The notes beneath the pieces were generated by a model. That model was given only the letters and a program-made list of their open reading frames with translations, was not told where the DNA came from and made no database searches. Shown here one piece after another: positions 14 through 64,000 of a stretch of DNA of 64,000 bases. The stretch's first letter is position 1. Every line of letters begins with the position of its first letter. This stretch comes from Bacteriovoracia bacterium. Its GTDB lineage: Bacteria > Bdellovibrionota > UBA1018 > JBFWNL01. The stretch is from contig JBFWNL010000005.1 of NCBI GenBank assembly GCA_050251055.1, positions 32,001 to 96,000 of the forward strand, read 5' to 3'. The translations under genes and the position numbers were made by a program.

Positions 14-1114
14 TTGAATCTCCAGATTCATCTCATCGACAAAAAAGAACCCACCGCGTTCGTGCGTAAATCGCTCGCGTCGTTCGAAGCGGTGGAAAAC
101 CTACGGAACGAGGCGGAAGTGCGCCGCGCGGCCGAGCGCGCGATAGGCCGAGGGGCGGCGCCAGGCGCCGTGTTGGCGCTCACGGAAAGTGCGGTGGTAT
201 CGGCCGCGCAGCTGCGTGAAAAGTGGAAGTGCCCGGGCTTGAGCGTCGCGCAAGCGCATACATTTTCCAATAAATCCGCGATGAAGGAAGCGGTGATCCG
301 CGCCGGCGTGAAATGTACGCCTTGGAAGGTGATCACCGCGGCCGACACATGCGAAAGCTTGGTCGCCGAGTTCGGTCTGCCGCTCGTGCTGAAGGAAGTG
401 GCGAATTCCGGCAGTCGCGGTACGGTTATCGCGCACGACGAGGCGAGCCTGCGCGCGGCATGGGCGGCGGGCTCGCGGGTGGGGGGGCTGGCGGAGGCGT
501 TCATCGACGGCTTGGAGATGAGTGTCGAGTCGATTGTTCACGGCGGAAATATCGTATTCACCAATTTCACCGAATATTACATTAATCAGTGGGCGAATAT
601 CGTTCCCGGTACGGTTGCCCCGGAGATCGAGCGCGCCGCGCAAGCATTGAACGTGAAAGTCATCCAAACGCTGGGGCTGCGCGACGGAATCACGCATCTT
701 GAGTTTTACTGGACGAAGGATGGCATCGTCTTCGGGGAAATCGCGGCCCGACCGCCGGGTGGATACCTGATGGAGCTCATCCACGTGGCTTACGGATTTA
801 ATCCCTGGACGGCCTGGCTGCAGGCGGAGTTGAGCGAGACGCCCGAGGTTCAGACGAAGCCCCAAGCCTACGCGGGCGTGCTGCTCTTTCACCCGGGGGA
901 AGGCGTCGTGGAGTCGATCGCGGGCCTGGAGTGGGCGATAAAGCAGCCGAAGGAAAAATTCTCGCTACGCTTAAACCCCGGGGACCGTGTCGATGCGCGT
1001 TTGGGGACCGGCCAAAACAAGGGTGAAGTGATCGTAAGCGGGAGCACGCGCGCGGAAGTCGCGGGTTGGCTCGACAATTTCGCGCGCGAGATCAGAATCA
1101 TCGTAAATCCTTAA
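14..1114 (+). CDS. ATP-grasp domain protein (L-amino acid ligase-like), probably 5'-truncated by the window edge
   Basis: NKSAMK, LPLVLKE..SGSRG, EAFIDGLEMSVES, THLEF, GEIAARPPGG are ATP-grasp motifs. Confidence 0.85.
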   Translation: MNLQIHLIDKKEPTAFVRKSLASFEAVENLRNEAEVRRAAERAIGRGAAPGAVLALTESAVVSAAQLREKWKCPGLSVAQAHTFSNKSAMKEAVIRAGVKCTPWKVITAADTCESLVAEFGLPLVLKEVANSGSRGTVIAHDEASLRAAWAAGSRVGGLAEAFIDGLEMSVESIVHGGNIVFTNFTEYYINQWANIVPGTVAPEIERAAQALNVKVIQTLGLRDGITHLEFYWTKDGIVFGEIAARPPGGYLMELIHVAYGFNPWTAWLQAELSETPEVQTKPQAYAGVLLFHPGEGVVESIAGLEWAIKQPKEKFSLRLNPGDRVDARLGTGQNKGEVIVSGSTRAEVAGWLDNFAREIRIIVNP

Positions 1115-4988: not shown

Positions 4989-7385
4989 TTACTTGCTGGT
5001 GCGCATTCCGTAGAACGAGCGCCAGACGAAGAACAGAGCCACGATCATCAGCACGACGCCGATGTAGAAGGCTTGTTCCTTCGCGCTGACCGCGATTTCC
5101 ACCGCCAAGAGCCCGAACAACGTCGTGAACTTGATGATGGGGTTGAGCGCGACGGACGACGTATCCTTGAACGGATCGCCGACGGTGTCGCCCACGACGG
5201 TCGCGGCGTGGAGCTCGGTGCCTTTTTCCTTGAGGTCGACTTCGACGACTTTCTTGGCGTTATCCCAAGCGCCGCCCGCGTTCGCCATGAACATGGCTTG
5301 GAACAAGCCGAACACGGCGATCGAGATCAGGTAGCTGGCGAAGAACGTGGCGTCGAAACAGGCGAAGGCCAAGGTCAACGCGAAGATCACGCCGAAGATG
5401 TTGATCATCCCGGCCTGGGCGTATTGCGTGCAGATCTTCACGACTTCCTTCGAGCTCTCAACGGACGCGGCTTTCGCCGAGTCGAGCTTGATGTTCGCCT
5501 TGATGTATTCCACCGCGCGGTAGGCGCCCGTGGTCACGGCCTGGATGGACGCGCCCGAGAACCAGAAGATCACCGCGCCGCCCGAGATCAAGCCCAGGAG
5601 AACCTTCGGATCGAGCAGGTCGAGCTTCAGGTTCAAGAGCAAGATGATCGAGAAGATCATGGTGGTCGCGCCGATCACGGCCGTGCCAATGAGCACGGGC
5701 TTCGCGGTCGCCTTGAAGGTATTACCGGCCGAGTCGTTGGACTCGAGCAAGTGTTTGCCTTGGTGGAAATCCGGCTTGAAACCGAATTCCTTTTGCACGT
5801 CGCCGGCGATGTTCGGGAGGTTCTCGATTTGCGAGAGCTCGAACACGCTTTGCGCGTTGTCGGTCACGGGACCGTAGCTGTCGACGGCGATCGTCACCGG
5901 GCCCATGCCCAGGAAGCCGAACGCCACCAGGCCGAACGCGAACACGGCCGGGTAGACCATGAATTCGCCCAAGCCCATCGCGGAGGTCAGGTAAGCGACC
6001 AACATCAACGCGACGATAACCATGCCCTTCCAGAAGGCGGAGAAGTTACCGGCCACCAAACCCGAAAGGATGGCAAGGCTTGCGCCGCCTTGGCGGGCCG
6101 AAGCCACCACTTCCTTAACGTGCTTGGAGTGCGCCGAGGTGAACACCTTGGTGAATTCCGGGATGATCGCGGCGGCAATGGTTCCGCAGCTGATGATCGT
6201 GGAGAGTTTCCACCAGAGGCCGTTCGGCAGGTCGCTGATCAGGATATCGCTGACCACGTAGGTAACGACGATCGAGACGGCCGAGGTGATCCAGACGAGC
6301 CAAGTGAGCGGCTTTTCGAAGTCGAATTCCTTCGCGTTGCCGAACATGGCCTTCGAGATCACGTTCGTGATCATGTAGGAGCCGATGGACGTGAAGATCA
6401 TCAACACGCGCATCATGAAGATCCAGATGATCAAGCGAGCCTGGAGATCCGGAGCGTTTGCACCGGCGGTGAGGGCACCGTCGGGCCCCATGGTCATGCC
6501 GACCGCCAGCGCGATGAAGCTGATGAGCGCCACGCCGGTCACGCCGTAGGTTTCGAAACCATCGGCCGTCGGGCCCACGCTATCGCCGGCGTTGTCGCCG
6601 GTACAGTCGGCGATCACGCCGGGGTTACGGGCGTCGTCTTCTTTAATGTTGAAAACGATCTTCATGAGGTCGGAACCGATGTCCGCGATCTTCGTGAAGA
6701 TACCGCCGCAGATCCGGAGCGCCGAAGCACCCAAAGATTCGCCGATGGCGAAGCCGATGAAGCACTTACCGGCGTGTTCTTTTGGCATGTAGAGGAGGAT
6801 GAAAATCATCATCACGAGCTCGACGCAGATGAGCAGCACGCCGATGGACATGCCCGCGCGGAGCGGGGTTTCCATTACGGGGTACGGCATGCCCTTGAGC
6901 GATGCGAACGCCGTGCGGGAATTGGCGTAGGTGTTGATGCGGATGCCGAACCAGGCGACCGCCACCGAGCCCAAGATCCCCAGGATGGACCAGGCCAGGA
7001 TCATCATCACTGGACCCATCTCCATGTGAAGCAGGAAGTAGAAGTAGTAGAAGATACAGGCGCCGATGAAGATTTCGAGGACGGCGAGCAATTTCCCTTG
7101 TTGGAACAAGTAGGTTTTGCAGGTTTCGTAAATCAATGCCGAGATGTCGAGCATCGACTTATGTGCAGGCAATTTCTTAATGCGCATGAATTCGATCAAG
7201 CCGAAGCCCATACCCAAGATCGAAAGCACCATGCCCCAGAACAAGAGCGTGTTGCCGGAGACTTCGCTGCCGAAAACATTGAACATGACCCCGAGTTCGG
7301 GGATGTGCAGATCCGCTTCGCTGCCAAATGCCGCGGGCGCCATCAGAAGGGCGCACCAGGAGACGAGCTGAGTCCATTTCTTCAT
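4989..7385 (-). CDS. hppA: membrane-bound ion-translocating pyrophosphatase, probably K+-independent H+-PPase
   Basis: GGIFTKIADIGSDL, EDDARNPGVIADCTGDNAGD, DSYGPVTDNA, GGAWDNAKK, GDTVGDPFKDTS; GNTFKA has Lys at the K+-dependence position. Confidence 0.97.
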   Translation of the reverse strand: MKKWTQLVSWCALLMAPAAFGSEADLHIPELGVMFNVFGSEVSGNTLLFWGMVLSILGMGFGLIEFMRIKKLPAHKSMLDISALIYETCKTYLFQQGKLLAVLEIFIGACIFYYFYFLLHMEMGPVMMILAWSILGILGSVAVAWFGIRINTYANSRTAFASLKGMPYPVMETPLRAGMSIGVLLICVELVMMIFILLYMPKEHAGKCFIGFAIGESLGASALRICGGIFTKIADIGSDLMKIVFNIKEDDARNPGVIADCTGDNAGDSVGPTADGFETYGVTGVALISFIALAVGMTMGPDGALTAGANAPDLQARLIIWIFMMRVLMIFTSIGSYMITNVISKAMFGNAKEFDFEKPLTWLVWITSAVSIVVTYVVSDILISDLPNGLWWKLSTIISCGTIAAAIIPEFTKVFTSAHSKHVKEVVASARQGGASLAILSGLVAGNFSAFWKGMVIVALMLVAYLTSAMGLGEFMVYPAVFAFGLVAFGFLGMGPVTIAVDSYGPVTDNAQSVFELSQIENLPNIAGDVQKEFGFKPDFHQGKHLLESNDSAGNTFKATAKPVLIGTAVIGATTMIFSIILLLNLKLDLLDPKVLLGLISGGAVIFWFSGASIQAVTTGAYRAVEYIKANIKLDSAKAASVESSKEVVKICTQYAQAGMINIFGVIFALTLAFACFDATFFASYLISIAVFGLFQAMFMANAGGAWDNAKKVVEVDLKEKGTELHAATVVGDTVGDPFKDTSSVALNPIIKFTTLFGLLAVEIAVSAKEQAFYIGVVLMIVALFFVWRSFYGMRTSK

Positions 7386-7507
7386 AGTCTTTACCTTTGT
7401 CCTCTAGTTGTAGTGATGCCCTAGGCCTTAACACAGGGTTATAGAGGCCTCAATGGTTGAAATTGAGTCTCGGGTATTAACTTTAATGCGGCGCATTAGT
7501 TTTGAAT

Positions 7508-9007
7508 TTAGGGCTTGGGCGGGATGCCGACGGACTTCAGGGTTCGTTCATACAATTCGGAATCGACTAGGAACTGGCGTACCGTATTGACGACATCAGC
7601 TCCGTTTTGCGTGGTGTTCCGGGAAAGTTTGCGAAGCGCGTAGAGCTGGCGCTCTTCGATTTTTTGGGCGAGTCCCGGTACGGAGGCGACGAGGGGATCC
7701 TTCGACCAATCAAAGAGCAACATTCGCACTTCGGGATGGGTTTTCGCCATGTCGGTTCCGCCGGCCGCGAGCTTGCGTGCCCATTCGTGGGTGACGGTTT
7801 GAGCCAGGTCGCGGATTTTGGGAGGGGACGATTTCGCTAGATCGACCAAAGCGATGCCCCGGTGATTGAAGTGGCTTTCTGAAACGGCGAATTCCACCAT
7901 TTGCGGGGCGAGCAGAGGGTTGGCGTCCCAGCCGGGCTGGTTTCGCAACCACGTTTCGATCGTGGGCTCGGGCAAGCCGAAGGCCGGGTCCTTCATGCTG
8001 CCATGAATGCCGTCGAGAATTTCCGCCATTCTTTTAGGGTCGGCGTTCGTCGGCACGGCTCGGTACTCGATCCCCCAGAGCCCGGGCTCATCATAAAATC
8101 GGTTTCCCCAGCGGATTCCGACCTGCGCACGTTTTTCTGTGATCGCGCCGTTGGGTTGCCCCGCTTTTTCAAAGAAGTCGCGCACCAGTGTGGAAAGGTC
8201 GGCTCTTTCCAGGCTTTGGTAGAAGTTGGGGTCTCCCCAAACGCCGTCAAGCGACTTGCGATTCTCCACGATGCTCAGCATGTCCGTCGCGAGATTTGCG
8301 CGGCGGTAAAAATCCGTTACCTGGGCGACTTGGATGGTTTTTCTCGCGGGATCGGAACTCAGGGCGCGGGGAGCGACCATGTGCACATGCTGGGGGCGGG
8401 GTTCCAGTTCAAGCGCCTTAAGAAAGGTGTTCGCGTCTTGGCTGGCCTGACCCGGAGTCGCGGTTTCACGGAAGTGAATCTCGACGCCGGTGAAACGAAT
8501 CGCGTCGTCGGGACTTCGATAGTCGACTTGACCCAGGAAAGAGGAAGTGCCGAAGTCATAGGTTCCCGGGGGGTAGGTCTTGCCTAGGAACGAGGTGGGT
8601 TGGGTAAACGTCAGCTCGACGACTTCGCGGATGCGCATGCCGTGCACTTTTCTAAAACGCTCCGGCTTTTCCTTTCCGACGTAGATCATGATTTCTAACT
8701 TTTCGGGAAAATCCAACGAATCCCAGGGAATCTCGGCCGCGGACTTTCCGGGGTGCTTCTTGGCGAGCCAAGCCGGCAAGGCCAGGTCTTCGAGGAGGGG
8801 CGCGACCGTGCCGTCATCGGACGTCAGTAGGGCCATGATCTTGGGGTTCATCCCCAGTTCGATTTCCACCGATGCGCTTTCCCCCATTCTCCCGGAGGCG
8901 CGCATGCCGCGCTCAAAGGCGTCGATGTAGCAAGGGGTCGTAGACTGAGCCCAAGCCCCGATCGAAAGAAAGAAGTTGATCAAAATAATCAGAAAATAGG
9001 CACGCAC
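7508..9007 (-). CDS. exported hypothetical protein with COOH-NH2 ligase (amidoligase)-like motifs
   Basis: Signal peptide ending AWA; VEIELG, VEIHF, QHVHMV, GIEYRA. Confidence 0.6.
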   Translation of the reverse strand: MRAYFLIILINFFLSIGAWAQSTTPCYIDAFERGMRASGRMGESASVEIELGMNPKIMALLTSDDGTVAPLLEDLALPAWLAKKHPGKSAAEIPWDSLDFPEKLEIMIYVGKEKPERFRKVHGMRIREVVELTFTQPTSFLGKTYPPGTYDFGTSSFLGQVDYRSPDDAIRFTGVEIHFRETATPGQASQDANTFLKALELEPRPQHVHMVAPRALSSDPARKTIQVAQVTDFYRRANLATDMLSIVENRKSLDGVWGDPNFYQSLERADLSTLVRDFFEKAGQPNGAITEKRAQVGIRWGNRFYDEPGLWGIEYRAVPTNADPKRMAEILDGIHGSMKDPAFGLPEPTIETWLRNQPGWDANPLLAPQMVEFAVSESHFNHRGIALVDLAKSSPPKIRDLAQTVTHEWARKLAAGGTDMAKTHPEVRMLLFDWSKDPLVASVPGLAQKIEERQLYALRKLSRNTTQNGADVVNTVRQFLVDSELYERTLKSVGIPPKP

Positions 9008-52482: not shown

Positions 52483-52884
52483 TTATTTAGGGCAGTGAGC
52501 CCGGATGGGGAAGGTCTTTTCGTAAGGCTTTTCGCATTTGCCGGTATCTGGGTTGTAGGCTTTGAACTTAAGTGAGATTTTTCCGCCCCCATCATCCACT
52601 GCCGCAGCGACGAATTCACAGGTGCCATGATCTGTCAGCAGCGGACGGAATTTTAGGTTTTTACCGCAAGACAACTGCACGGTCACCCGACTCGGCTCGG
52701 ACATTGGCTCGCCGTAACGATCCTGACGAACCTGCAGCTCGCCGAAGCCTTTGAAGCTCAATACCTTCAGAGATGAGGGAATCTCCTGGACGGTCGGCTC
52801 TGCGCTAAAAGACGCAAGCGGGAGCGCCCAGCTGAATGACGTCATCAGGAGAGCAAGCGGGATTAATCGGGGCATGAATGGCAT
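52483..52884 (-). CDS. exported hypothetical protein (4 Cys)
   Basis: Signal peptide; overlaps end of upstream ORF. Confidence 0.6.
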   Translation of the reverse strand: MPFMPRLIPLALLMTSFSWALPLASFSAEPTVQEIPSSLKVLSFKGFGELQVRQDRYGEPMSEPSRVTVQLSCGKNLKFRPLLTDHGTCEFVAAAVDDGGGKISLKFKAYNPDTGKCEKPYEKTFPIRAHCPK

Positions 52885-54022
52885 AGAGAACCTCGTGCCA
52901 GGTTTCTAACTGGCTGGAGTTGAATTGGTAGCCGTTGACCCGGTTCGGACAGAACGGCAACGAAAGATGCAAATGATGTTGGTGCGCGTGGTCTTCACAG
53001 CCGACAGTACCGGACTGCTCAGAGCAAGCGGGGTTGGCGAAGTGCGCTTGCACGGCGTCGGTCCAACAGCTGCGGAATCCCTGCCAGAAAGCGCGGTTTT
53101 TCTTTTGGACGGCGGTGAGTTGGCGCTCGAAGCCGCGCTTCACGAGCGCCTCCGCCTCGGCCGCGATTTCGTATTTCATCTCCATCACGCCGTTCCGGGG
53201 TTTGAGAGTGATGCTCAGCGATTTCACGTCGATCGCACGGTTCAAGGAGTGGTAGCTGCGCGGAAGATGGTTTTGATCCGCGGCGAGCCCGTTATGTACG
53301 AGCTTGATCGCGGAGACCTCGTTCGCGATCTGTAGTTTCGTCAATCCTTCACTCACGCAGCGGGAAAAGTTTTCGTCGATGAAATCCGCCAGGGCTTTGG
53401 ACATTTCACGGCGTTCGGAGCAGTCGTAGCCGGAGAAATTCCCATAGAGTCCCTTCCGGTTTTCGCACTCATTCCAAAACACCATTTGTTCTTCGACTTT
53501 GCTGGGGCCGTGGGACAGCACGTTCCCCGGCTTGAACGTGATATTGAGTGGCTTCGGCACGCTGGGAAAGACGTGGTGAGTGGTAGCGGCAGGCGGCGTG
53601 CTCGTTTGTTCGCATTCCGGTGGGGGGGGGGAGTTGACGGCCTCAAGTACCGTGTTTTGGCCGGCAATGAGTTGCACCGCGGCTGTTTCTTCCGTTTCGG
53701 CGGTGTAAAGATCGAAGTATTTCTTGGAAATGGCCAGCACGCGGTCTGTGCCCACGACTTGGGCGAATACAAATCCCCCGCGTTCAGTTTGGCCGTCCGT
53801 CAGGGCGATTCGCCGCAAGTAAATGTTAGACGAAGAGGTTGGCGCGATATTTTCATCAGGGCCGGTCCATTTGAAGCGTCCATCAGGAAGCATTTCGACG
53901 GGACGCCCCGCGATCTGGGCAGAGACGAGACGATTTGGCGGTGGGTCTTCGGCCCGTATGAGCGTAGTCCCGCAAAGGATCGCGATCACGCCGAGCCGAA
54001 TCAAGGTTGTAAAATTTGGCAT
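52805..54022 (-). CDS. exported protein with extensin-like C-terminal/LAS (M15-like) metallopeptidase motifs
   Basis: SYHSLNRAIDV (HxxxxxxD-like) and HQHHLHLS (HxH). Confidence 0.68.
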   Translation of the reverse strand: MPNFTTLIRLGVIAILCGTTLIRAEDPPPNRLVSAQIAGRPVEMLPDGRFKWTGPDENIAPTSSSNIYLRRIALTDGQTERGGFVFAQVVGTDRVLAISKKYFDLYTAETEETAAVQLIAGQNTVLEAVNSPPPPECEQTSTPPAATTHHVFPSVPKPLNITFKPGNVLSHGPSKVEEQMVFWNECENRKGLYGNFSGYDCSERREMSKALADFIDENFSRCVSEGLTKLQIANEVSAIKLVHNGLAADQNHLPRSYHSLNRAIDVKSLSITLKPRNGVMEMKYEIAAEAEALVKRGFERQLTAVQKKNRAFWQGFRSCWTDAVQAHFANPACSEQSGTVGCEDHAHQHHLHLSLPFCPNRVNGYQFNSSQLETWHEVLYAIHAPINPACSPDDVIQLGAPACVF

Positions 54023-55659: not shown

Positions 55660-55707
55660 CCGCGGATTCTAATGCAAATGGCTAGGAAAATCAGTTATTT
55701 TAGAGGC

Positions 55708-57645
55708 ATGCGCACGTTGTTGCTCATCCCCCCCATGGTGCAGGTGAATACGCCTTATCCGGCCACCGCCTACTTAACGGGTTTTTTGAAGTCGCGCGGT
55801 CACGATGTGGTGCAGGCGGACCCTTCGGTTGAATTGATCTGCCGCCTCTTTTCGGCGAACGGGTTGCAGCGCGTTCGGGAGGCGCTCCCTTCGCGCGCGG
55901 CCAAGGGTTGGAAGCATTTTGATCGCGAATTCGCGCGTTATGAGGCGACGGTCGAGCCCGTCTTGGACTTCCTGCGCGGACGTAATCCATCGCTCGCCAA
56001 CCGAATTGTCACCCGCAACTTCCTGCCCGAAGGACCGCGGTTTCACGCGCTTTCTCCGACCGGTACGGAAGGCGAAGATAGCGAGACGCTAGGGTGGGCG
56101 TTCGGCGCCCTGGGGGTAACCGATCAGGCGAAGCATTTAGCCAGTCTTTACCTAGACGATCTAGCGGACGTAATCCGGCTCGGCATTGATCCTTATTTCG
56201 AGTTTTCCCGTTACGGGGAAAAGCTCGCCGCCTCCCAGGCTTCCTTCGATCCCCTGCGCGAGGCCTTGTTGGCGCCCGCGACCCTGGTGTCACTAGTCTT
56301 AGAGGAAATCACCGTGGAGCTTTTGCGTGAGCATCGCCCCAGCTTGGTGGGGCTCACGGTGCCGTTTCCTGGAAACGTCTACGGAGCGTTCCGTATGGCC
56401 GCGGCGATTCGTCGGGAGGCACCCACGGTAAAAATCGCCTTGGGTGGAGGTTACGTGAACACGGAGCTGCGTGAACTCTCCGATCCGCGGGTCTTCGATT
56501 GGGTGGACTTCATCACCTACGATGACGGGGAGCGGCCGCTCGAGTGTCTGATTGAGCATCTCGCAGGGAAACGTCCTCGCGAAGAGTTACTGCGTACGGC
56601 TTTCCGCGAGCTACCGCCCGACGGCAAGCGGGCCGCAGAATCCGACGGGGGAGTCATCCGCCTCGTTTCTTCGCCCCGGGAGCACGATGTGCCGCTCAAG
56701 CAAGCGGGGTTTCCAACCTATGCGGGGTTGCCGCTCGACCGTTACATACCGGTTTTTGAGATGCTCAACCCGATGAATCGCCTGTGGACGGACTTTCGTT
56801 GGAATAAGCTCACGCTCGCGCACGGATGTTACTGGAAAAAGTGCACGTTTTGCGACACTTCGCTCGATTACATCGGTCGCTATGATCCTCTGCAGGCGGA
56901 CGCGATTATCGATCGCATGGAGGCCTTGATCCGGGAAACCGGGCAAAGCGGTTTTCACTTCGTCGACGAGGCGGCTCCCCCCGCGATTCTGCGAGGGCTT
57001 TCCGAGCGTCTGCTCGCGCGCAAGGTGGTCGCGAGTTGGTGGGGCAATATCCGATTCGAGAAAACCTTCACGCCCGAGCTCGCCCGTCTGATGGCCGAGG
57101 CTGGTTGCATCGCCGTGACCGGTGGCTTAGAGGTCGCCTCGGATCGCGTGCTGAAGCTCATTAATAAAGGGGTGAGCATCGAGCAGGTCGTGCGGGTAAC
57201 CCGCGCATTTCGGGATGCCGGTATCTTCGTGCATGCATACTTGATGTATGGCTTCCCTACGCAGACGGTGCAAGAAACCGTCGATAGCCTCGAGGTCGTA
57301 CGCCAGCTTTTTTCTGAGGGTTGCTTACACTCTGGCTTCTGGCATCGCTTTTCGGCGACCGTGCACAGCCCCGTAGGCCGCGACCCCAAGGCGTTTGGGA
57401 TTCGTTTGCGCGAGGGCAAAACCCCGAAGCCAGGGCGTTTCGCGCGGAACGATTTACCCTTCGAGGATCCCACACTAGGTGCCGGTAAGTCCAAGCTGGA
57501 TCATGCCCAACTGGGCGAGGGCTTGCGCCGGGCTATTTATAATTACATGCATGGGGTAGGATTGGATCAGGACGTGCACCGGTGGTTTGACGTGAAGGTG
57601 CCGGCCACGAAAGTTTCTAAAACCCTGGTACAGAGGTGCCGGTGA
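55708..57645 (+). CDS. B12-binding domain radical SAM protein
   Basis: NTPYPATAYL, HGCYWKKCTFCD, FVDEA, GGLE. Confidence 0.92.
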   Translation: MRTLLLIPPMVQVNTPYPATAYLTGFLKSRGHDVVQADPSVELICRLFSANGLQRVREALPSRAAKGWKHFDREFARYEATVEPVLDFLRGRNPSLANRIVTRNFLPEGPRFHALSPTGTEGEDSETLGWAFGALGVTDQAKHLASLYLDDLADVIRLGIDPYFEFSRYGEKLAASQASFDPLREALLAPATLVSLVLEEITVELLREHRPSLVGLTVPFPGNVYGAFRMAAAIRREAPTVKIALGGGYVNTELRELSDPRVFDWVDFITYDDGERPLECLIEHLAGKRPREELLRTAFRELPPDGKRAAESDGGVIRLVSSPREHDVPLKQAGFPTYAGLPLDRYIPVFEMLNPMNRLWTDFRWNKLTLAHGCYWKKCTFCDTSLDYIGRYDPLQADAIIDRMEALIRETGQSGFHFVDEAAPPAILRGLSERLLARKVVASWWGNIRFEKTFTPELARLMAEAGCIAVTGGLEVASDRVLKLINKGVSIEQVVRVTRAFRDAGIFVHAYLMYGFPTQTVQETVDSLEVVRQLFSEGCLHSGFWHRFSATVHSPVGRDPKAFGIRLREGKTPKPGRFARNDLPFEDPTLGAGKSKLDHAQLGEGLRRAIYNYMHGVGLDQDVHRWFDVKVPATKVSKTLVQRCR

Positions 57646-57881
57646 GCGAAGATAAAAAGTTGATCGACCGTCTCTGGGTGCTGATCGTGGCCGTGGCCAC
57701 GGTGGGGCCGTTCGCCCTTCCGCTTTTGTGGCGCAATCCGCATTACAAGCTATCGACGAAGATCGGCGCTTCCGTATTGGTGGTCGCGTTGACCGTCTAC
57801 TTGCTTTATTTCTCGGCCGGGCTCATGCAACAGCTAGCCGAGCAGCTTCAGGCCCTGCAGCAGATGCAGAACCAGAATTAA
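57642..57881 (+). CDS. small 2-TM membrane protein
   Basis: GTGA overlap; VGPFALPLLW. Confidence 0.7.
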   Translation: MSEDKKLIDRLWVLIVAVATVGPFALPLLWRNPHYKLSTKIGASVLVVALTVYLLYFSAGLMQQLAEQLQALQQMQNQN

Positions 57882-58585
57882 AACCCGTAAGTATAGAAGT
57901 AGTAGGTATAGCGCTGGTACGTGAACGAGTAATACGGCGAGTGATTCAGGTAGGAGCCGCCTGAATAATACGACGGGTAGTAGTAGTAGTTCGGGTCGTA
58001 GTATTGGCCGTAGTTGCGCGGGTTAAAGAAATAGCCGGGATTTCCGTAGTAGCTGGGCGGTTGGCCCCACGAGTAAGGGTACTCTACTCCGTAGCGGACG
58101 TTGAAGCGGCCGCACCAGCCGTCTTGGCCATGGCCATAACCGCGTCCATAACCATAACCAGGTCCGTAACCATATCCAGGCCCGTAGCCGTATCCATACC
58201 CACGCCCATACCCGCGTCCGTAAGCGGGCATTTCTGGGCGAAAGAAGTACCAGGACCCATCCACCGGTCCGCCTTGATAGTGACCCTGCGGGGTGACGAC
58301 TTGGTTGGGAGCGACGTTGGTGTACTCGCGCGATTCGCCGGCGAAGGTCGCTTCGTTTTGCGGGCTCATTGCGATGTAGGTCGCGGATTGGTGATATTGA
58401 GTTTCACCGGTTTCGTTGTCCATGCGAACGACGATCACGCCCTGGTTATAGCCGCCACCGTAACCGGGTTGGCCGGGTTGCGCGGGGATGACCAACGGAG
58501 TGGCGGGGCGAGAGTCCGTCCCGCAGGCCGAGAGCAGTAAAGAAGTTCCGAGTACTAAAGCATGGGCGAAATTCATTTTTTTCAT
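57878..58585 (-). CDS. Tyr/Gly-rich lipoprotein (precursor-like)
   Basis: Lipobox LSAC, GYG repeats, Tyr-rich C-terminus. Confidence 0.8.
   Translation of the reverse strand: MKKMNFAHALVLGTSLLLSACGTDSRPATPLVIPAQPGQPGYGGGYNQGVIVVRMDNETGETQYHQSATYIAMSPQNEATFAGESREYTNVAPNQVVTPQGHYQGGPVDGSWYFFRPEMPAYGRGYGRGYGYGYGPGYGYGPGYGYGRGYGHGQDGWCGRFNVRYGVEYPYSWGQPPSYYGNPGYFFNPRNYGQYYDPNYYYYPSYYSGGSYLNHSPYYSFTYQRYTYYFYTYGF
58130..58225 (-). repeat. degenerate GYG(R/P/Y) coding repeats
   Basis: YGRGYGRGYGYGYGPGYGYGPGYGYGRGYGHG with synonymous codon divergence. Confidence 0.8.
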
Positions 58586-58707
58586 ACGGCCCTGCTTTTA
58601 TAACGCTAGGCATTAGATGACAAGAGAAAAACCGTCAACAATTTGCCGTGAATTCATTTAATTTCAATGAGTTATAAAATACTTTAAGTGGAGTCTTTAG
58701 CCCGGCC

Positions 58708-59181
58708 CTAGCCCCAACGGTGGTAGGCGGGGTGGCCTGGCTTTACGGCGACGAAGGTGCCCCGACAAGTCGCGCAGATTTTTCCGCCGGCCGTGAGGGT
58801 GGCGGTGATAACGGCGCGATCGTCGGTGGAACTTTCGACTTTGGCTTCGAGGTGAATCTTCGTATTCGCGGGCGTGGGTCGCAGTAGTTTTACGGCGTAG
58901 TCCGCGGTGACGGTGCACTGGGGTTGGGAAGCGCCCGCGCGGTTCATCAGATGCCATGCCGCCGTCCAGTTGGAATGGCAATCGAGCAGCGCTCCGATGA
59001 TTCCACCGTTGAGCACGCCCGGAAATGCTTCGTGATGAGATTCGGGCTGCCAATCGGCGACGACGAGCTCGCCTTCGGGGAAGCTGCGGATGCGAAGCCC
59101 CTTTTGGTTAGCAGGCCCGCAGCCAAAACAAGCGCTCGTGGGAGCGTACTTTTCCTGCAAGGATGGATCGTTTGGCGTCAT
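58708..59181 (-). CDS. PaaI family thioesterase
   Basis: CFGCGPAN..GL, LNGGIIGALLDCH. Confidence 0.9.
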   Translation of the reverse strand: MTPNDPSLQEKYAPTSACFGCGPANQKGLRIRSFPEGELVVADWQPESHHEAFPGVLNGGIIGALLDCHSNWTAAWHLMNRAGASQPQCTVTADYAVKLLRPTPANTKIHLEAKVESSTDDRAVITATLTAGGKICATCRGTFVAVKPGHPAYHRWG

Positions 59182-59252
59182 GGTTGCCGGTATAGCCTGC
59201 CTGCCCGCGAATGCCCATTGTTTTAAAGGGGGGTGGCGGGTAAACCGGGGAG

Positions 59253-60182
59253 ATGGCTTGCGTAACGATTGATTGCGATTACGTCTATCCCCAGTTCGCC
59301 GGCGCTTACCTGGTGCACGCGGACGGACGCGGCTATTTCGTGGAAAACAACACGGCCCATGCGGTCCCCCGGTTGTTACAGGCCTGCCAGACCTCCGGGG
59401 TTTCTCCGGACGCTGTGGACTTTCTGATCATCACGCATGTGCATCTGGATCACGCGGGGGGAACCTCCACCTTGCTTGCGCACTGTCCAAACGCGACGGT
59501 GCTTGCTCATCCGCGCGCGGCCCGTCACCTCGTCGATCCATCGCGCTTGGTGGGAAGCGCCCGCCAAGTATACGGAGACGCGGTGTTTGAAAAGCTCTAC
59601 GGAAGGGTGGACCCCATTCCCGCCCCGCGCGTGCGGGAAATGACGGATGGGGAACGGCTGACGTGGCAAGGACGCGAGCTTTGTTTTTGGCACACGCGCG
59701 GGCACGCCAATCACCACTTCGTAGTTCACGACGAAAAAGAAGATGCAGTTTTTACGGGCGACGCATTTGGAATCATGTACCCCGCGCTGCAAAAGCACGG
59801 GCTCTTCATCTTTCCTTCGACGAGCCCGACGGACTTCGACGCGGAAGCCGCGCGCGAAGCTGTGCGCAAGATCGTGGGCCTGGGCGCTCGTACGGCCTTG
59901 CTTACGCACTTTGGCGGCCTGACCGCCCAGCGGGAAGCCGCCGACCAGCTGATCGGGCACCTGGACTTCAGCGAGGGGCTCATGCTCGAGGCCGAAAAGT
60001 CAGGGCGATCGGACGAGGAGCTCACGGCTTTTTGCCGCGAGAAGCTGCAGACCCATTTCGTGACGACTTGGGAAGCCACGCGCCCGGCGATGAGTGGGGC
60101 GGAAAGCACGCTATTGAAGTTGGATCTGGATTTGAATGCGGCGGGCCTCGCCTACGCGGCCGTCAAGCGGCGCCAACGCTAA
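59253..60182 (+). CDS. MBL-fold metallo-hydrolase
   Basis: THVHLDHAGG, GHANHH, TGDAFG, THFG. Confidence 0.93.
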   Translation: MACVTIDCDYVYPQFAGAYLVHADGRGYFVENNTAHAVPRLLQACQTSGVSPDAVDFLIITHVHLDHAGGTSTLLAHCPNATVLAHPRAARHLVDPSRLVGSARQVYGDAVFEKLYGRVDPIPAPRVREMTDGERLTWQGRELCFWHTRGHANHHFVVHDEKEDAVFTGDAFGIMYPALQKHGLFIFPSTSPTDFDAEAAREAVRKIVGLGARTALLTHFGGLTAQREAADQLIGHLDFSEGLMLEAEKSGRSDEELTAFCREKLQTHFVTTWEATRPAMSGAESTLLKLDLDLNAAGLAYAAVKRRQR

Positions 60183-60215
60183 CGTCGGTCCACAGACTCA
60201 CGAGACTCACGCTGG

Positions 60216-60956
60216 TTACTCACGAAACGGTTTTTCGCCCGTCTTTTGTTCAAAGCGCTTGGCCCATTCGGTAAGTAAGTCCGGATGTGCCGGTCCAAAA
60301 CCGCAGGGGCCGGCATCGTCGGAAGAACGGTAGGTGGCCTTCGAAGGCGAAGCGCCGTAGTGGCACATGAGGCAATTGTGGAGCGGTACGCGGTTCATCT
60401 GGATGCGCAGATCCCGTCCGCTCGCCGCGCTTTGAAATGCGACCTCGAAAGCAGGGGTGCCGGTGTACCGGTTTAGTTTCAACTTTCTCGGCGTGGCTTC
60501 GCCCAAAAATTCCTCGGGCGAATAGACTCCGAGCGCCCAGCGCCCCTCGGGGAGCAGTCGGGCGGTACGCAATTCATAGACCTGTGGGATCGCGGTTTGG
60601 AATTCCAGAAGGTGAAAAAGCTGGGTGCCGACGGGGTACTCCCAGCGCTCTCCCGTTTCGGTTTGAATGCGCCGGATGGCATGGCCCTTGGGCACGTGGG
60701 CATAGAAACGCTCGCGAAAGGCTTCCATCAGGTTGGCGTGGATGGAAGTCGGCTTATCGTTGATGAGGATGCGTAGGCCGAGCGGGGAAAATAGGAAGCG
60801 TGCAGGTTGGGAGAATTCCACGGTATGCGCGCCTTCTAGAACGCTGAGGGAGATTTCCTCGGGTAGGCCTTCGTAAAGCGGACCGGCCAGAACGAGAGAA
60901 AGGGGGGCGAGAAGCAGGCAACCGGTGACTAACAGGATCTTGAGAATCATTCTCAT
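60216..60956 (-). CDS. exported protein with C-terminal CxxCH, cytochrome P460-like layout
   Basis: Signal peptide, YPVGT, CLMCH near C-terminus. Confidence 0.62.
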   Translation of the reverse strand: MRMILKILLVTGCLLLAPLSLVLAGPLYEGLPEEISLSVLEGAHTVEFSQPARFLFSPLGLRILINDKPTSIHANLMEAFRERFYAHVPKGHAIRRIQTETGERWEYPVGTQLFHLLEFQTAIPQVYELRTARLLPEGRWALGVYSPEEFLGEATPRKLKLNRYTGTPAFEVAFQSAASGRDLRIQMNRVPLHNCLMCHYGASPSKATYRSSDDAGPCGFGPAHPDLLTEWAKRFEQKTGEKPFRE

Positions 60957-61061
60957 TTTTGTTCGCACAGAAGCCTTTGCCCGGCAAGCGGATACCCGGC
61001 AATGACAAGAGGCGTTGACGCTTTTTCAAGAACAGGTCCGCGTCTGGGCTCGTGATCCCGA

Positions 61062-62672
61062 CTATTTTGGCGTCTCGGCGAGTTTTCGCAGCTCCGCGGG
61101 AAACGGCGTCCGCCATTCACGGGATAGGGCGCGCCGCTTTTTGAATGCGAGTTGGGGCGAAACGATGGTCCCTTGCTTTTCCTGGGCGACGGCGATGACC
61201 TTTTTATCTTTGGAAGAAGCCACGATGATGTCGGTAGGCAGCGTGCGTTTGGCGCCAACGGCTTTTAGTTCCGGGATCTCGGTCGGATCCTGCGTCGTTA
61301 GGGCGGTGAGATAGCCGCGGGCGTCGAACACGAGCTGAGCGTCTTTCGGCACGAGTTTTTTGGTCCACTCATCCAGTAAGTCGAGCGTCCCCGTGCGTAG
61401 CATCGGGGGAGCCAGCGGTGTTTTTAGCGTGTTCATGAAACGACGGACCTGGCCCGTGGTGAGGCCAGGCTCTTCGGATTTCATCACCGCCACGGCCGCG
61501 GCCAAAAATGCGGCCGCGGTGGACGAGCCGTCGAAGCTTTCTCCGTTCGTGAAGCGCACGCGGGCGCCGTCGATAGAGACTTCGGGCTTTACGCGTCCGT
61601 CGGCAGTGGGGCCGATGGAGGAAACCCCGGTAAAATCACCGACGGTAATCACCGTGGGGTTGTCCGCCGGAGCCATGATCTCGCTCGTTTCGGAACGATC
61701 GTGGAAAATAACGGCGTCCTGCTTGTCGGATTTCAAGAGCACGCGCAAGCGGTCCATGGATTCGAAATGGTTGGATTTTGCGCGCACTTGGATTCGATAG
61801 TTACCGCGATTGAGATTCACGAGCTGGACGGTTTCGCGGGCGTGACTCGAAAGCTTGGCGTTATCCGGCGAGGCGTTGGGATCGTCCTTGGCTTTCGGAG
61901 CCTCTCCCCGCTGGATCAGTTCGCCGGATCCGACGAGTTGGTCCTTTTCGTCGTAAACGAATACATCGAGATCCTTGGCGGTATTATAAGCCTCGTCATC
62001 TTTGAAGTCGCTCCAGCTCAGGCTGATATTCACGGTGTTCTCGTCGAGCAGATTCTGGAAGCGCAGGTGATCCCGCACCCCGAACTGCACGACGTCGCCC
62101 TTGAGCTGGCGTTTGATTGCGGCGTTGTGCACCATCGCGCCGTGGTTGCCGGAGGCATTGATCCAAATCACGCCCGCCGCGGTGGCGCGGCTCACCTGGG
62201 CATTAATAAAACCCTTGCCGTCGAAGTTACTACCGAACGGCCAGACCTGGCTGTAGAGCACGACGTCGATTTTGTGTTCGATCACGTAATCGATTGCGGC
62301 TTTAAGATTCGAGAATCCGTTGGTGTTGATGAGATAGAATTCGGGGCCGGTCTCGCGCTTGCCGGTGAGCCCCCAAATGACTTGGGCCATCCCGGTACCG
62401 TGCGTGGTTTGGCCGGCGGGGAACTGGGTGAGGTTCAATAGCTGGGCGTTGTCGGGCAGCAAACCCTTGCCGGTTTCGAAGCCGCCGAAGCCGTTGTCGA
62501 GCACGGCGACTTTCACGTGCTTCAGCTTCTCGGCGTTCGCATAGGCGCGCAGGCCCAGGTTGTTACGCAGACGCTCGCGGTCCATGATCTCGTTTGCCGC
62601 CAGCGCCTTTACCGCGAAGGCCAGAGCCATTGAAACCGCCAAGATGCTGAGGATCCACTTTTTCATAAACAT
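61062..62672 (-). CDS. exported S8 subtilase-family peptidase
   Basis: VAVLDNG, THGTGMA, NASGN, KPEV, GSSTAAA. Confidence 0.85.
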   Translation of the reverse strand: MFMKKWILSILAVSMALAFAVKALAANEIMDRERLRNNLGLRAYANAEKLKHVKVAVLDNGFGGFETGKGLLPDNAQLLNLTQFPAGQTTHGTGMAQVIWGLTGKRETGPEFYLINTNGFSNLKAAIDYVIEHKIDVVLYSQVWPFGSNFDGKGFINAQVSRATAAGVIWINASGNHGAMVHNAAIKRQLKGDVVQFGVRDHLRFQNLLDENTVNISLSWSDFKDDEAYNTAKDLDVFVYDEKDQLVGSGELIQRGEAPKAKDDPNASPDNAKLSSHARETVQLVNLNRGNYRIQVRAKSNHFESMDRLRVLLKSDKQDAVIFHDRSETSEIMAPADNPTVITVGDFTGVSSIGPTADGRVKPEVSIDGARVRFTNGESFDGSSTAAAFLAAAVAVMKSEEPGLTTGQVRRFMNTLKTPLAPPMLRTGTLDLLDEWTKKLVPKDAQLVFDARGYLTALTTQDPTEIPELKAVGAKRTLPTDIIVASSKDKKVIAVAQEKQGTIVSPQLAFKKRRALSREWRTPFPAELRKLAETPK

Positions 62673-62698
62673 AGCCAACTTCCTTCGTGAGCGAGAAC

Positions 62699-62747
62699 GA
62701 GGCTCCCCTTGACGGAGAAGATTAGGCCCCCGACGTCGGGGAGCCTC
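62699..62747 (-). other. intergenic stem-loop between precursor and protease genes
   Basis: Perfect 10-bp inverted repeat gaggctcccc/ggggagcctc, no clear U-tract. Confidence 0.65.
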
Positions 62748-62763
62748 TCTCACTCAGACCTGA

Positions 62764-63246
62764 TTACCACCAACCGCGATAGCAGTTACTGTAACGGGGA
62801 TAATAGTACGTGTAGCTATATCCCGAGTAACGGTAGCTGTAGCTCGGATAGTAGTAGTAGGTGTAGCCATAGCTGCCACGGTAGTAATTGTACGAGTAAT
62901 AGTTTCCGCAACTATTACGATAGTAGTTACCGTAGTTGTAGCCGCCGGAGTAACTCCAGCGGTGCCACGACTCATCTGACGTGACCTTGTCCAGCTCCGT
63001 GCCGTCGGTCACGTTCATCAGGTTCTCTTTCTTCACGTGAGACATGGCGTTCATGGCGGCCTTTTCGTCCGTCACGACCTTCATGTCCTTAGCGAGATAG
63101 ATTTCCTGATGACCCGAGACGTCCTCGCGGACCACGAGACCTTGAGGGGCGTCTTTGCCATCAGCAGGAGCGGTGGGATCAAGCTCACCCGCGGATGCGC
63201 TGAGCGCGCCCACGGCAAACATCATCAATGCGATGTGCTTAATCAC
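62764..63246 (-). CDS. secreted precursor with acidic pro-region and Tyr-rich C-terminus
   Basis: GGAGG RBS, signal peptide ending ASA, 26 Tyr in the last 67 residues by manual count. Confidence 0.85.
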   Translation of the reverse strand: MIKHIALMMFAVGALSASAGELDPTAPADGKDAPQGLVVREDVSGHQEIYLAKDMKVVTDEKAAMNAMSHVKKENLMNVTDGTELDKVTSDESWHRWSYSGGYNYGNYYRNSCGNYYSYNYYRGSYGYTYYYYPSYSYRYSGYSYTYYYPRYSNCYRGWW

Positions 63247-63466
63247 GATGTGCCTCCTAGTTACTCACCCATAAAACCCCCGCCGCTTGCGCAGTGGGGT
63301 GAAGGGCACTGGGTGAGGTTCAGTGCTCTCAGACTAGGTTCTGAAGATCGCTTGGAGCGTGAGCGTGTGCCCCGTTCGTTTAGGCGCACGGGGTAGCGCC
63401 TGGGCGGACTGAAGGATGATTCAAGTCCGTCCGACTCCAAAAAAAATCCAGAACGGAGGGCTGTTC

Positions 63467-63482
63467 AGCAAGGGGTGTACCA
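63467..63482 (-). promoter_or_regulatory. sigma54 promoter upstream of the Tyr-rich precursor
   Basis: Minus strand TGGTAC-ACCCC-TTGCT, GG-N10-GC. Confidence 0.65.
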
Positions 63483-63643
63483 GGGAGGTGGGCTAGGTGA
63501 GCGGCGCGTTGTGTTTTTTGACTTTGAAATAACTGAGATTTTTTAGGCAGTCTGCACGCAAGCGGGATGCATTGGAGCCAAAAAAGAATAGCCGATTTTT
63601 TTTATCGGAGACAAAATGGGCAATGCTGCGAATACAAAGTGGC

Positions 63644-64000
63644 TTAGCTTGCGCGGATCACGATTCCAGTGATCGAGTAGCTACCGCAAGTCGGTGAACC
63701 CGTCACCGTCACCGTGAGGTTGTTGCCGTCCAACGTGCCCGATAGTGTCAGCGCGCCCGTGCAGGTACTGGGGGCGGTGAGGGTGATCGTGCCGGTAACG
63801 GAGTTGCCGGATTTAGTGGCGGTGATCGTGCCCTGATAGGTGATGTTCCCCGTTGTCGTGACGGCGGTGTAAGTTCCGGTGGTGGTGCTACCTGATTCCG
63901 TCATCGCAAACTGCGCAGTCGCGCTTTGGCCGGTGGCGCCGCCGATGGTTCCGGTCAAGGTACCCGTGAAGGTTCCGGTCAGCCCCTTTCCACAAGAGGT
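63644..64000 (-). CDS. Thr/Gly-rich beta-strand lipoprotein, 5'-truncated by window edge
   Basis: Frame open to the edge, begins ...TSCGKG. Confidence 0.6.
   Translation of the reverse strand, partial: TSCGKGLTGTFTGTLTGTIGGATGQSATAQFAMTESGSTTTGTYTAVTTTGNITYQGTITATKSGNSVTGTITLTAPSTCTGALTLSGTLDGNNLTVTVTGSPTCGSYSITGIVIRAS

Follow-up and report, generated by a model that had tools for sequence, protein, structure and literature searches.

CspB of the clostridia is a subtilase dedicated to the processing of a single substrate, pro-SleC, and peptide operons may carry S8-family leader peptidases of their own (LanP type, PatA/PatG). In the oocyst wall of Eimeria, the Tyr-rich precursors GAM56 and GAM82 are cut to Tyr-rich peptides, apparently by subtilisins to judge from the inhibitor profile, and dityrosine cross-links are believed to join the peptides into a resistant wall (PMC3770453). 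On paper, the Eimeria pathway is the nearest functional parallel in print to the gene pair described here. The pair lies on contig JBFWNL010000005.1 (positions 32,001–96,000, forward strand) of a Bacteriovoracia bacterium (Bdellovibrionota; assembly GCA_050251055.1); this 64,000-nucleotide stretch is called the window, and all coordinates refer to it. The first gene, open reading frame (ORF) A (62764–63246, minus strand), encodes a Tyr-rich exported precursor of 160 aa, and the second an exported S8 subtilase (61062–62672, minus strand). An earlier reading of the same DNA (the original prediction) had proposed a family of such precursors with a dedicated subtilase. We favour, with moderate confidence, a reading of ORF A and the S8 gene next to it as a two-gene module, one gene encoding the substrate and the other its processing protease; the freed tail would assemble or cross-link outside the cytoplasm. 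The pair is conserved and undescribed in predatory Bdellovibrio-type bacteria, where the annotation of its members goes no further than 'hypothetical protein' and 'S8 family serine peptidase'.

The comparison with the described systems is as follows. The Csp proteases, subtilases whose catalytic domain has a beta-sandwich insert, are the best structural matches of the window S8, and the insert modelled in the latter may correspond to theirs; in contrast to them, the window S8 has a signal peptide, no prodomain, a different substrate family and no spore context. With the S8 leader peptidases and with QhpE the window pair shares a subtilase encoded beside a small precursor, although the window S8 matched the NCBIfam model of QhpE only weakly and partially (23.7 bits against a cut-off of 165), the window pair is without modification enzymes, and its product is far longer and of low complexity. 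The Eimeria pathway is eukaryotic and not homologous, and no peroxidase is conserved beside the bacterial pair. Judged by the features of curli and Fap, no third conserved gene (channel or nucleator) accompanies the pair, and the precursor matched no Pfam or NCBIfam model. The pair Bd0450/Bd0449 of Bdellovibrio bacteriovorus belongs to the same family and has the same gene order: a precursor of 131–132 aa with ELD, VVIR, the junction ELDQDGGASSW and a Tyr tail, followed by a 525-aa S8 that is about 30–35% identical to the window S8, as judged from Bdellovibrionaceae loci.

ORF A starts with GTG, 7 nt after an AGGAGG. A Sec signal peptide ending in ASA can be read from its sequence (residues 1–19; 63190–63246), and family alignments delimit a pro-region of about 74 residues (residues 20–93; 62968–63189) and a Tyr-rich tail that begins with W94 and ends in GWW (residues 94–160; 62767–62967), all on the minus strand. 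The mature N-terminus after the ASA site is G-ELD. The acidic pro-region carries PQGLVVR and is followed by TELDKVTSDESW and the 67-residue tail; its elements are the N-terminal ELD (21–23), P34, the VVR strand (38–40) and a junction ELD (84–86) leading into KVTSDES, which makes the junction ELDKVTSDESW. All strings that the original prediction quoted for ORF A and for a second protein, ORF B, were present; in ORF A these are QGLVVREDVSGHQEIY, DESW and YYYYPSY, as read from the translation. The tail also agrees with its earlier description (about 39% Tyr, two Cys, no acidic residues): from W94 it comprises 39% Tyr and 45% aromatic residues, with two Cys, no Asp or Glu and six Lys plus Arg. AlphaFold models the precursor as strand, strand and helix, with a predicted local distance difference test (pLDDT) score of 52–69 in the ten-residue blocks from 31 to 90. 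A fold search with this model returned no usable match (best Z 2.7), and the best feature matches in the ESM Atlas (0.89 and 0.86) were to unnamed clusters commonest in Planctomycetota, a lead only, since they fall below the 0.9 bar.

That an exported S8 protease directly follows ORF A was borne out by a match to PF00082 (51.1 bits against a cut-off of 21.8). Its ATG start is at 62672 or 62666. Subtilisin BPN' matches the window S8 (E = 7.8e-11) in two stretches, 46–175 and 318–407, and an insert of about 140 residues therefore lies between them (61716–62141, minus strand), within the catalytic domain, where it separates the region of the oxyanion Asn from that of the Ser; in the AlphaFold model (pLDDT 66) it consists of beta strands spanning 179–321. 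One S8 homologue carries PF04151. Among PDB entries searched with Foldseek, CspB, CspA and CspC of the clostridia ranked best, above plain subtilisins, with E-values from 2.3e-12 to 4.9e-9 and template modelling scores of 0.39–0.45 for a query model of pLDDT 66; Csp identity to the window S8 is 10–15%. The triad residues D57 (62496–62498), H89 (62400–62402) and S382 (61521–61523, all minus strand, in 534-aa numbering) are invariant in 61 of 61 S8 sequences, and these are therefore predicted to be active enzymes rather than pseudoproteases. The oxyanion residue, N174 in the window S8, is Asn in 55 of the 61 and Asp in six. The catalytic Asp is residue 57 of 534, some 30 residues past the signal peptide, and in 69 of 77 tabulated S8 ORFs it lies at most about 90 residues, mostly 50–60, from an in-frame Met (the other eight have no upstream Met). 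Such a distance is what a signal peptide and the usual mature N-terminus would take up, with little or no space left over for a prodomain.

Our interpretation is supported by the genetic coupling of the two genes. In whole-genome searches, 17 of the 116 genomes from the order held a precursor relative, each in single copy, and in 14 of these 17 loci the next gene downstream, on the same strand, is an S8 orthologue; in the remaining three, the S8 is 2 kb further on (G009), the locus is cut by a contig end (G096), or no S8 is present (G080). In the G009 locus (L010, G009:C3), a second, different S8 (455 aa; 6343–7710, plus strand) and a reverse-strand ORF stand between the precursor and the cognate S8. 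Counted by genome, the S8 was found at E ≤ 1e-40 in 15 of the 116, all 15 of which also carry the precursor, and in none of the 99 without it; the two genomes with a precursor and no S8 are represented by assemblies that are 83–84% complete. Starting from the protease, an alignment of five S8 orthologues retrieved 69 loci, whereas a single S8 sequence retrieved none. After subtraction of five partial matches from other phyla (L111, L112, L114–L116) and three S8s at contig starts (L087, L109, L110), 61 loci could be assessed. A precursor positive by hidden Markov model (HMM) was directly upstream of the S8 in 50 of them, and a divergent, longer ORF with a Gly/Tyr/Trp-rich end in six more (L073, L079, L084, L103, L105, L108), so that an aromatic-tailed gene on the same strand directly precedes the S8 in 56 of 61. 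Chance falls far short of explaining the link between ORF A and the S8. When flanking ORFs in related loci were clustered, the S8 recurred in 63 loci and the precursor, at BLAST level, in 36; the next cluster reached 14 loci, and no third gene was conserved beside the pair.

These counts bear directly on the idea that the genes are mere neighbours, a general secreted feeding protease beside an unrelated low-complexity surface protein. In its favour, Bd0449 (Q6MQL6, 57.2 kDa) was detected by liquid chromatography–tandem mass spectrometry in the culture supernatant of a host-independent strain, among many secreted proteases (PMC3898049). Terminator-like hairpins between the genes would also permit separate transcription. 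In the window, folding of the 94 nt 3' of ORF A detected a long GC-rich hairpin between the ORF A stop and the S8 start (62685–62758, minus strand; −45.3 kcal/mol, z = −4.6). Among 30 related loci with a gap of at least 35 nt, 15 fold at z ≤ −3 between the genes, several with a T run like that of classic terminators; in 18 further loci the gap between precursor and S8 is at most 25 nt. A scan of 57500–63700 listed neither sigma-70-like promoter sites nor, in the gap between ORF A and the S8, a terminator. Two sequencing runs are listed as containing the stretch; both come from one study and are recorded as DNA, one of them perhaps the source of this DNA, and no RNA run is listed. The hairpins fit strong expression of a structural gene with weaker expression of the enzyme gene behind it, and equally allow separate transcription. 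The recurrence of the upstream gene, the co-occurrence in all 15 S8-bearing genomes of the order with no S8 in the 99 lacking a precursor, and the reappearance of the pairing in four metagenome loci outside this set, described below, nevertheless make chance proximity of unrelated genes very unlikely.

The precursor family is widely but thinly spread. ORF A matched only itself in its own genome, and a word-index search of 5.8 billion proteins returned itself and one other protein (P0002, 40% identity). Of 401 genomes that sample the phylum, 67 have relatives, as one copy in 63, two in three and three in one (G264). In G264, one precursor (L127) has an adjacent S8, another (L126) has none within about 4 kb, and the third locus (L128) gave no match at E ≤ 1e-3. 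A HMMER scan of 1.84 billion representatives recovered 382 precursor clusters at E ≤ 0.001, of which 200 also pass E ≤ 1e-10, and record titles of the related loci include Bacteriovoracaceae, Oligoflexia, Bdellovibrionales and Pseudobdellovibrionaceae. No Pfam or NCBIfam model matched any precursor member tested, none was common to the 18 members scanned by Pfam, and literature searches found no paper on the family.

In the alignments, the precursors begin with a signal peptide, followed by x-ELD, P-x-G/T-(L/V)(I/V)VR, and a short hairpin and helix. The pro-region is 60–80 residues long and ends in a junction of the form (S/G)ELD-xx-(S/T)S-xx-(S/A)-W, whose Trp is invariant. The tails vary from 34 to 117 residues, with 18–62% Tyr and 27–65% aromatic residues, and are rich in Tyr, Trp, Gly, Asn and Ser; a YYPSY core recurs in the alignment consensus across the phylum. 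An ELD-type motif directly follows the A-x-A site in 44 of 55 members, the junction ELD is present in 48, and both occur in 41, separated by 59–80 residues; the C-terminal residue is W, Y or F in 46 of the 55, often within YRWW or YRWY. ORF A has every element of this plan: the signal peptide, the ELD after the signal site, the ELD xxSSxSS W junction, the aromatic tail and the adjacent S8. One family member without either ELD (L026, G080:C302) has the junction FQLNSLLNTDYNPW; its genome, an 83% complete assembly, has no S8 of this kind at E ≤ 1e-40. The combination of signal peptide and ELD was no commoner in the source genome (5 matches) than control motifs (1–6). It is no general feature of this genome, and the motifs are specific to the family.

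Beyond the phylum, S8 homologues at 36–39% identity carry the NCBI labels Gemmataceae, Urbifossiella and Planctomycetia. One sequence labelled Planctomycetia (P0243) retrieved the four metagenome loci of the second set, which probably are of planctomycete origin. An upstream ORF with a Gly/Tyr/Phe-rich tail is present in all four. The three whose N-terminus is on the contig consist of a signal peptide, (G/D)ELD, a Pro/Ala-rich spacer of 17–22 residues, (S/T)E(L/M)D-(S/Q)ESP and the tail. In L129 the precursor appears to be split over two frames (3–458 and 462–638, plus strand), its tail continuing in the other frame, which could reflect a frameshift, a sequencing error or two genes. The precursors of this set keep the ELD-type motifs and the tail without the folded region; the folded pro-region would therefore be dispensable there, and ELD becomes, from sequence comparison, the best candidate for the recognition element.

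The same loci weigh on a second alternative, that the small protein is a detached prodomain surrogate, acting as chaperone or inhibitor of the S8, with its tail a mere anchor and the real substrates elsewhere. Csp proteases keep their prodomain bound, and the S8 in 69 of 77 ORFs has little or no room for a prodomain of its own, judging by the position of its Asp; both points suit a surrogate. So does, weakly, a complex predicted between the S8 and precursor residues 26–112, which scored 0.56 against 0.00 for the best control and lends the substrate–protease module the same weak support. Of 157 solved complexes, 116 reached the mark for a complex, as did 2 of 215 mismatched pairs; at scores of 0.60 or less, it was reached by 18 of the 157 solved complexes and by both of the mismatches that passed. 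Runs agreed in at least 56% of contacts, and partner pLDDT was at least 42. Against a surrogate, hhalign gave a probability of only 0.4% when the 40-sequence pro-region profile was compared with an alignment of I9 prodomains (PF05922; eight prodomains from seven genomes of the order), a comparison of sequence profiles; for a shared fold the precursor model (pLDDT 50) is too poor a guide. The P0243 set replaces the very region that would have to act as prodomain with a Pro/Ala spacer and retains the ELD-type motifs and the tail, and across the phylum the tail composition and YYPSY core are kept. The precursor transcript of B. bacteriovorus is also three times that of the protease (as RPKM, reads per kilobase per million; PMC3627812). 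A surrogate role is therefore quite unlikely, if less so than mere adjacency.

The pair of B. bacteriovorus offers a view of its timing. In a complete genome of the phylum sample (G233), a 131-aa precursor (...AGELDNESS...TVVIRVDN...NELDQDGGASSWYFYSGYNYYSY...) is followed by a 525-aa S8. By exact-sequence look-up this S8 is B. bacteriovorus CAE78431.1, a 'putative protease', and the precursor falls in the cluster of CAE78432.1 / Q6MQL5, 'hypothetical protein ... HD100', so that the two G233 proteins are identical or nearly so to those of B. bacteriovorus; copies also occur in strains 109J and Tiberius. Transcripts of Bd0449 rose from an RPKM of 0.77 in attack phase to 66 at 3 h and those of Bd0450 from 0.76 to 198 (Supplement 2, PMC3627812), and both genes are flagged as growth-phase specific (PMC3627812). 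At the protein level, Bd0449 belongs to a cluster with a 3 h peak (log2 fold change 0.86 relative to attack phase, false discovery rate 2.6e-7; PMC12546842 supplements), and this time point corresponds to late growth and septation (PMC12546842, main text). The transposon sequencing supplements of PMC6561027 contain neither Bd0449 nor Bd0450, and literature searches found no functional study of either.

A third alternative holds that the tail is a bioactive peptide, set free by a leader peptidase and aimed at other bacteria; it could be RiPP-like (ribosomally synthesized and post-translationally modified), antimicrobial, or imitate the signal that outer-membrane proteins carry at their C-terminus. 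The leader-plus-core-like layout, the dedicated S8 and a hairpin 3' of the precursor gene, as found in many peptide operons, would suit such a peptide, and the aromatic residue that ends 46 of 55 tails would suit a signal mimic or another bioactive product. However, genes for modification, export or immunity are not conserved beside the pair, and the tails are widely variable in length (34–117 residues) and of low complexity. The S8 that retrieved the second locus set is labelled Planctomycetia, and planctomycetes are not known to be predators. In B. bacteriovorus, moreover, the genes are off in attack phase (PMC3627812). We consider this alternative highly improbable. For the RiPP-like cross-linked product that the original prediction had entertained, the outcome was negative: neither a modifying enzyme, nor a transporter, nor any third gene is conserved beside the pair. 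The other fates it named for the tail (amyloid, adhesive, coat or antimicrobial) are all guesses.

Returning to the substrate–protease module, the order of events that we envisage is as follows. ORF A and the S8 would both be exported by their Sec signal peptides, as read from the sequence, with the acidic pro-region holding the tail soluble during export; the median net charges of the family, −5 for the pro-region and +2 for the weakly basic tail, fit a solubilising pro-piece. The subtilase would then recognise the ELD-bearing junction and cut at or near it, and the freed tail, by self-assembly or cross-linking, would become part of the envelope or matrix. For B. bacteriovorus, tail release would come late in growth and at septation, as progeny envelopes are built. 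The linkage that was asked of the S8 holds well, with its 56 of 61 loci and its 15 of 15 genomes of the order.

Several points weigh against this mechanism. Subtilisins usually favour aromatic P1 residues, and an unspecific enzyme would therefore shred the tail and not release it. About two thirds of Bdellovibrio genes are reportedly growth-phase specific, which makes the argument from timing soft. Cleavage and its position near the junction are deduced from the sequences; cleavage has nowhere been observed, and where the cut would fall is a guess. The AlphaFold model of ORF A is poor (mean pLDDT 50), and the predicted complex of S8 and pro-region gives only weak support. On a side branch, five loci with an S8 (L063, L064, L077, L082, L100) have genes for an integration host factor (IHF)-like protein and a zinc-ribbon protein upstream in place of a precursor. 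The module is patchy in the phylum, at 67 of 401 genomes, and is therefore not a core predation function. Finally, the Bd0450 protein has no entry in seven text supplementary files of PMC12546842.

The original prediction placed a second protein, ORF B, in the same family, and here the evidence is more divided. ORF B (57878–58585, minus strand) is a lipoprotein of 235 aa with an LSAC lipobox. Its translation contains QGVIVVRMDNETGETQY, DGSW, YYYYPSY and YTYYFY, and from its N-terminus it runs through an LLLSAC lipoprotein signal, a Gly-rich linker, QGVIVVRMDNETGETQY, about 65 residues, DGSW, GYG repeats and a Tyr-rich end. The VIVVR strand, the SW junction and the tail are present; both ELD motifs and an adjacent S8 are absent. 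The similarity of its pro-region to that of ORF A, which had been claimed as a shared motif, is weaker than was assumed there, being seen by some methods and missed by others. BLASTP between the whole proteins gave E = 42, and the pro-regions alone did not align at E ≤ 100. When the 31,503 ORFs of the genome were searched with a profile built from the pro-region only, ORF B came second, at 9.0 bits and E = 4, barely above the third at 8.8 bits. Yet in three whole-length family profiles ORF B was the sole other match among the same ORFs (E = 0.064, 0.013 and 0.036), the 12.5 bits of its pro-region were reached by none of 2000 shuffles, and hhalign aligned the 40-sequence pro-region profile with ORF B residues 44–129 over 61 columns at a probability of 88.4%. 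In a phmmer search with ORF B, the S8-linked member L097 was recovered at E = 4.7e-7 among 5,077 ORFs, collinear from the VVR strand to the SW junction. Long, GYG-rich variants linked to an S8 exist (e.g. L105 and L103), as do orphan extra copies. Against the 116 genomes of the order, ORF B gave only Gly-Tyr repeat matches, several with internal stops, and no real homologue; its exact sequence is absent from the protein collection. On these sequence comparisons ORF B is likely to be a distant paralogue of ORF A.

A paralogue need not share the protease. Since ORF B is lipid-anchored and without ELD motifs, the same processing is not expected, and we would regard it as a diverged relative that is probably not cut by the S8. 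The proposal of one family with a dedicated subtilase thus stands for ORF A, through adjacency, common strand and co-occurrence across the phylum, and does not extend to ORF B, beside which there is no S8. The idea that this S8 also acts on ORF B was not supported, given the lipoprotein signal of ORF B, the missing ELD motifs and the lack of a neighbouring S8.

The next gene 3' of the S8 (60216–60968, minus strand) encodes an exported protein of 250 aa with a single CxxCH haem-binding motif close to its C-terminus. No Pfam or NCBIfam family matched it, and its structure neighbours in the Atlas are domains fused to cytochrome c. It was considered as a cross-linking peroxidase and dropped, as it is not conserved beside the pair in related loci. 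A metallo-beta-lactamase-fold gene (59253–60182, plus strand) and a thioesterase-fold gene (58708–59181) lie between this gene and ORF B. A B12-binding radical SAM protein of 657 aa (55672–57645, plus strand) is encoded convergently with ORF B. It scored 84.5 bits against TIGR03975 (cut-off 281.85), and its top NCBIfam matches were the PhpK-type and RiPP C-methyltransferase subfamilies, both far under their cut-offs. As a maturase of the system it was rejected, being convergent with ORF B and absent from related loci. An open-ended Thr/Gly-rich ORF with TGT-type repeats and no Pfam family (63644–64000, minus strand) lies 5' of ORF A, and an exported 405-aa protein, Cys/His-rich near its C-terminus and without an NCBIfam match, is encoded at 52805–54022 (minus strand).

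A more far-reaching version of the substrate–protease module can be stated, though it is rather doubtful as a whole: the pair may be a bacterial counterpart of the coccidian oocyst-wall pathway. A prodomain-less, Csp-like subtilase would read ELD and release Tyr-rich peptides, which would self-assemble or be dityrosine cross-linked into a protective layer of the new envelope, in Bdellovibrio that of the progeny inside the prey. Such a pathway would be spread over Bdellovibrionota and probably Planctomycetota.

If the substrate–protease module is correct, the pair would represent a new substrate family, a new recognition motif for subtilases (ELD) and a natural prodomain-independent subtilase. 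Tyr-rich peptides that self-assemble or cross-link are of interest as biomaterials. For the model predator B. bacteriovorus, the module would mean a previously unknown building material of the cell envelope, with Tyr contents of up to about 60%.

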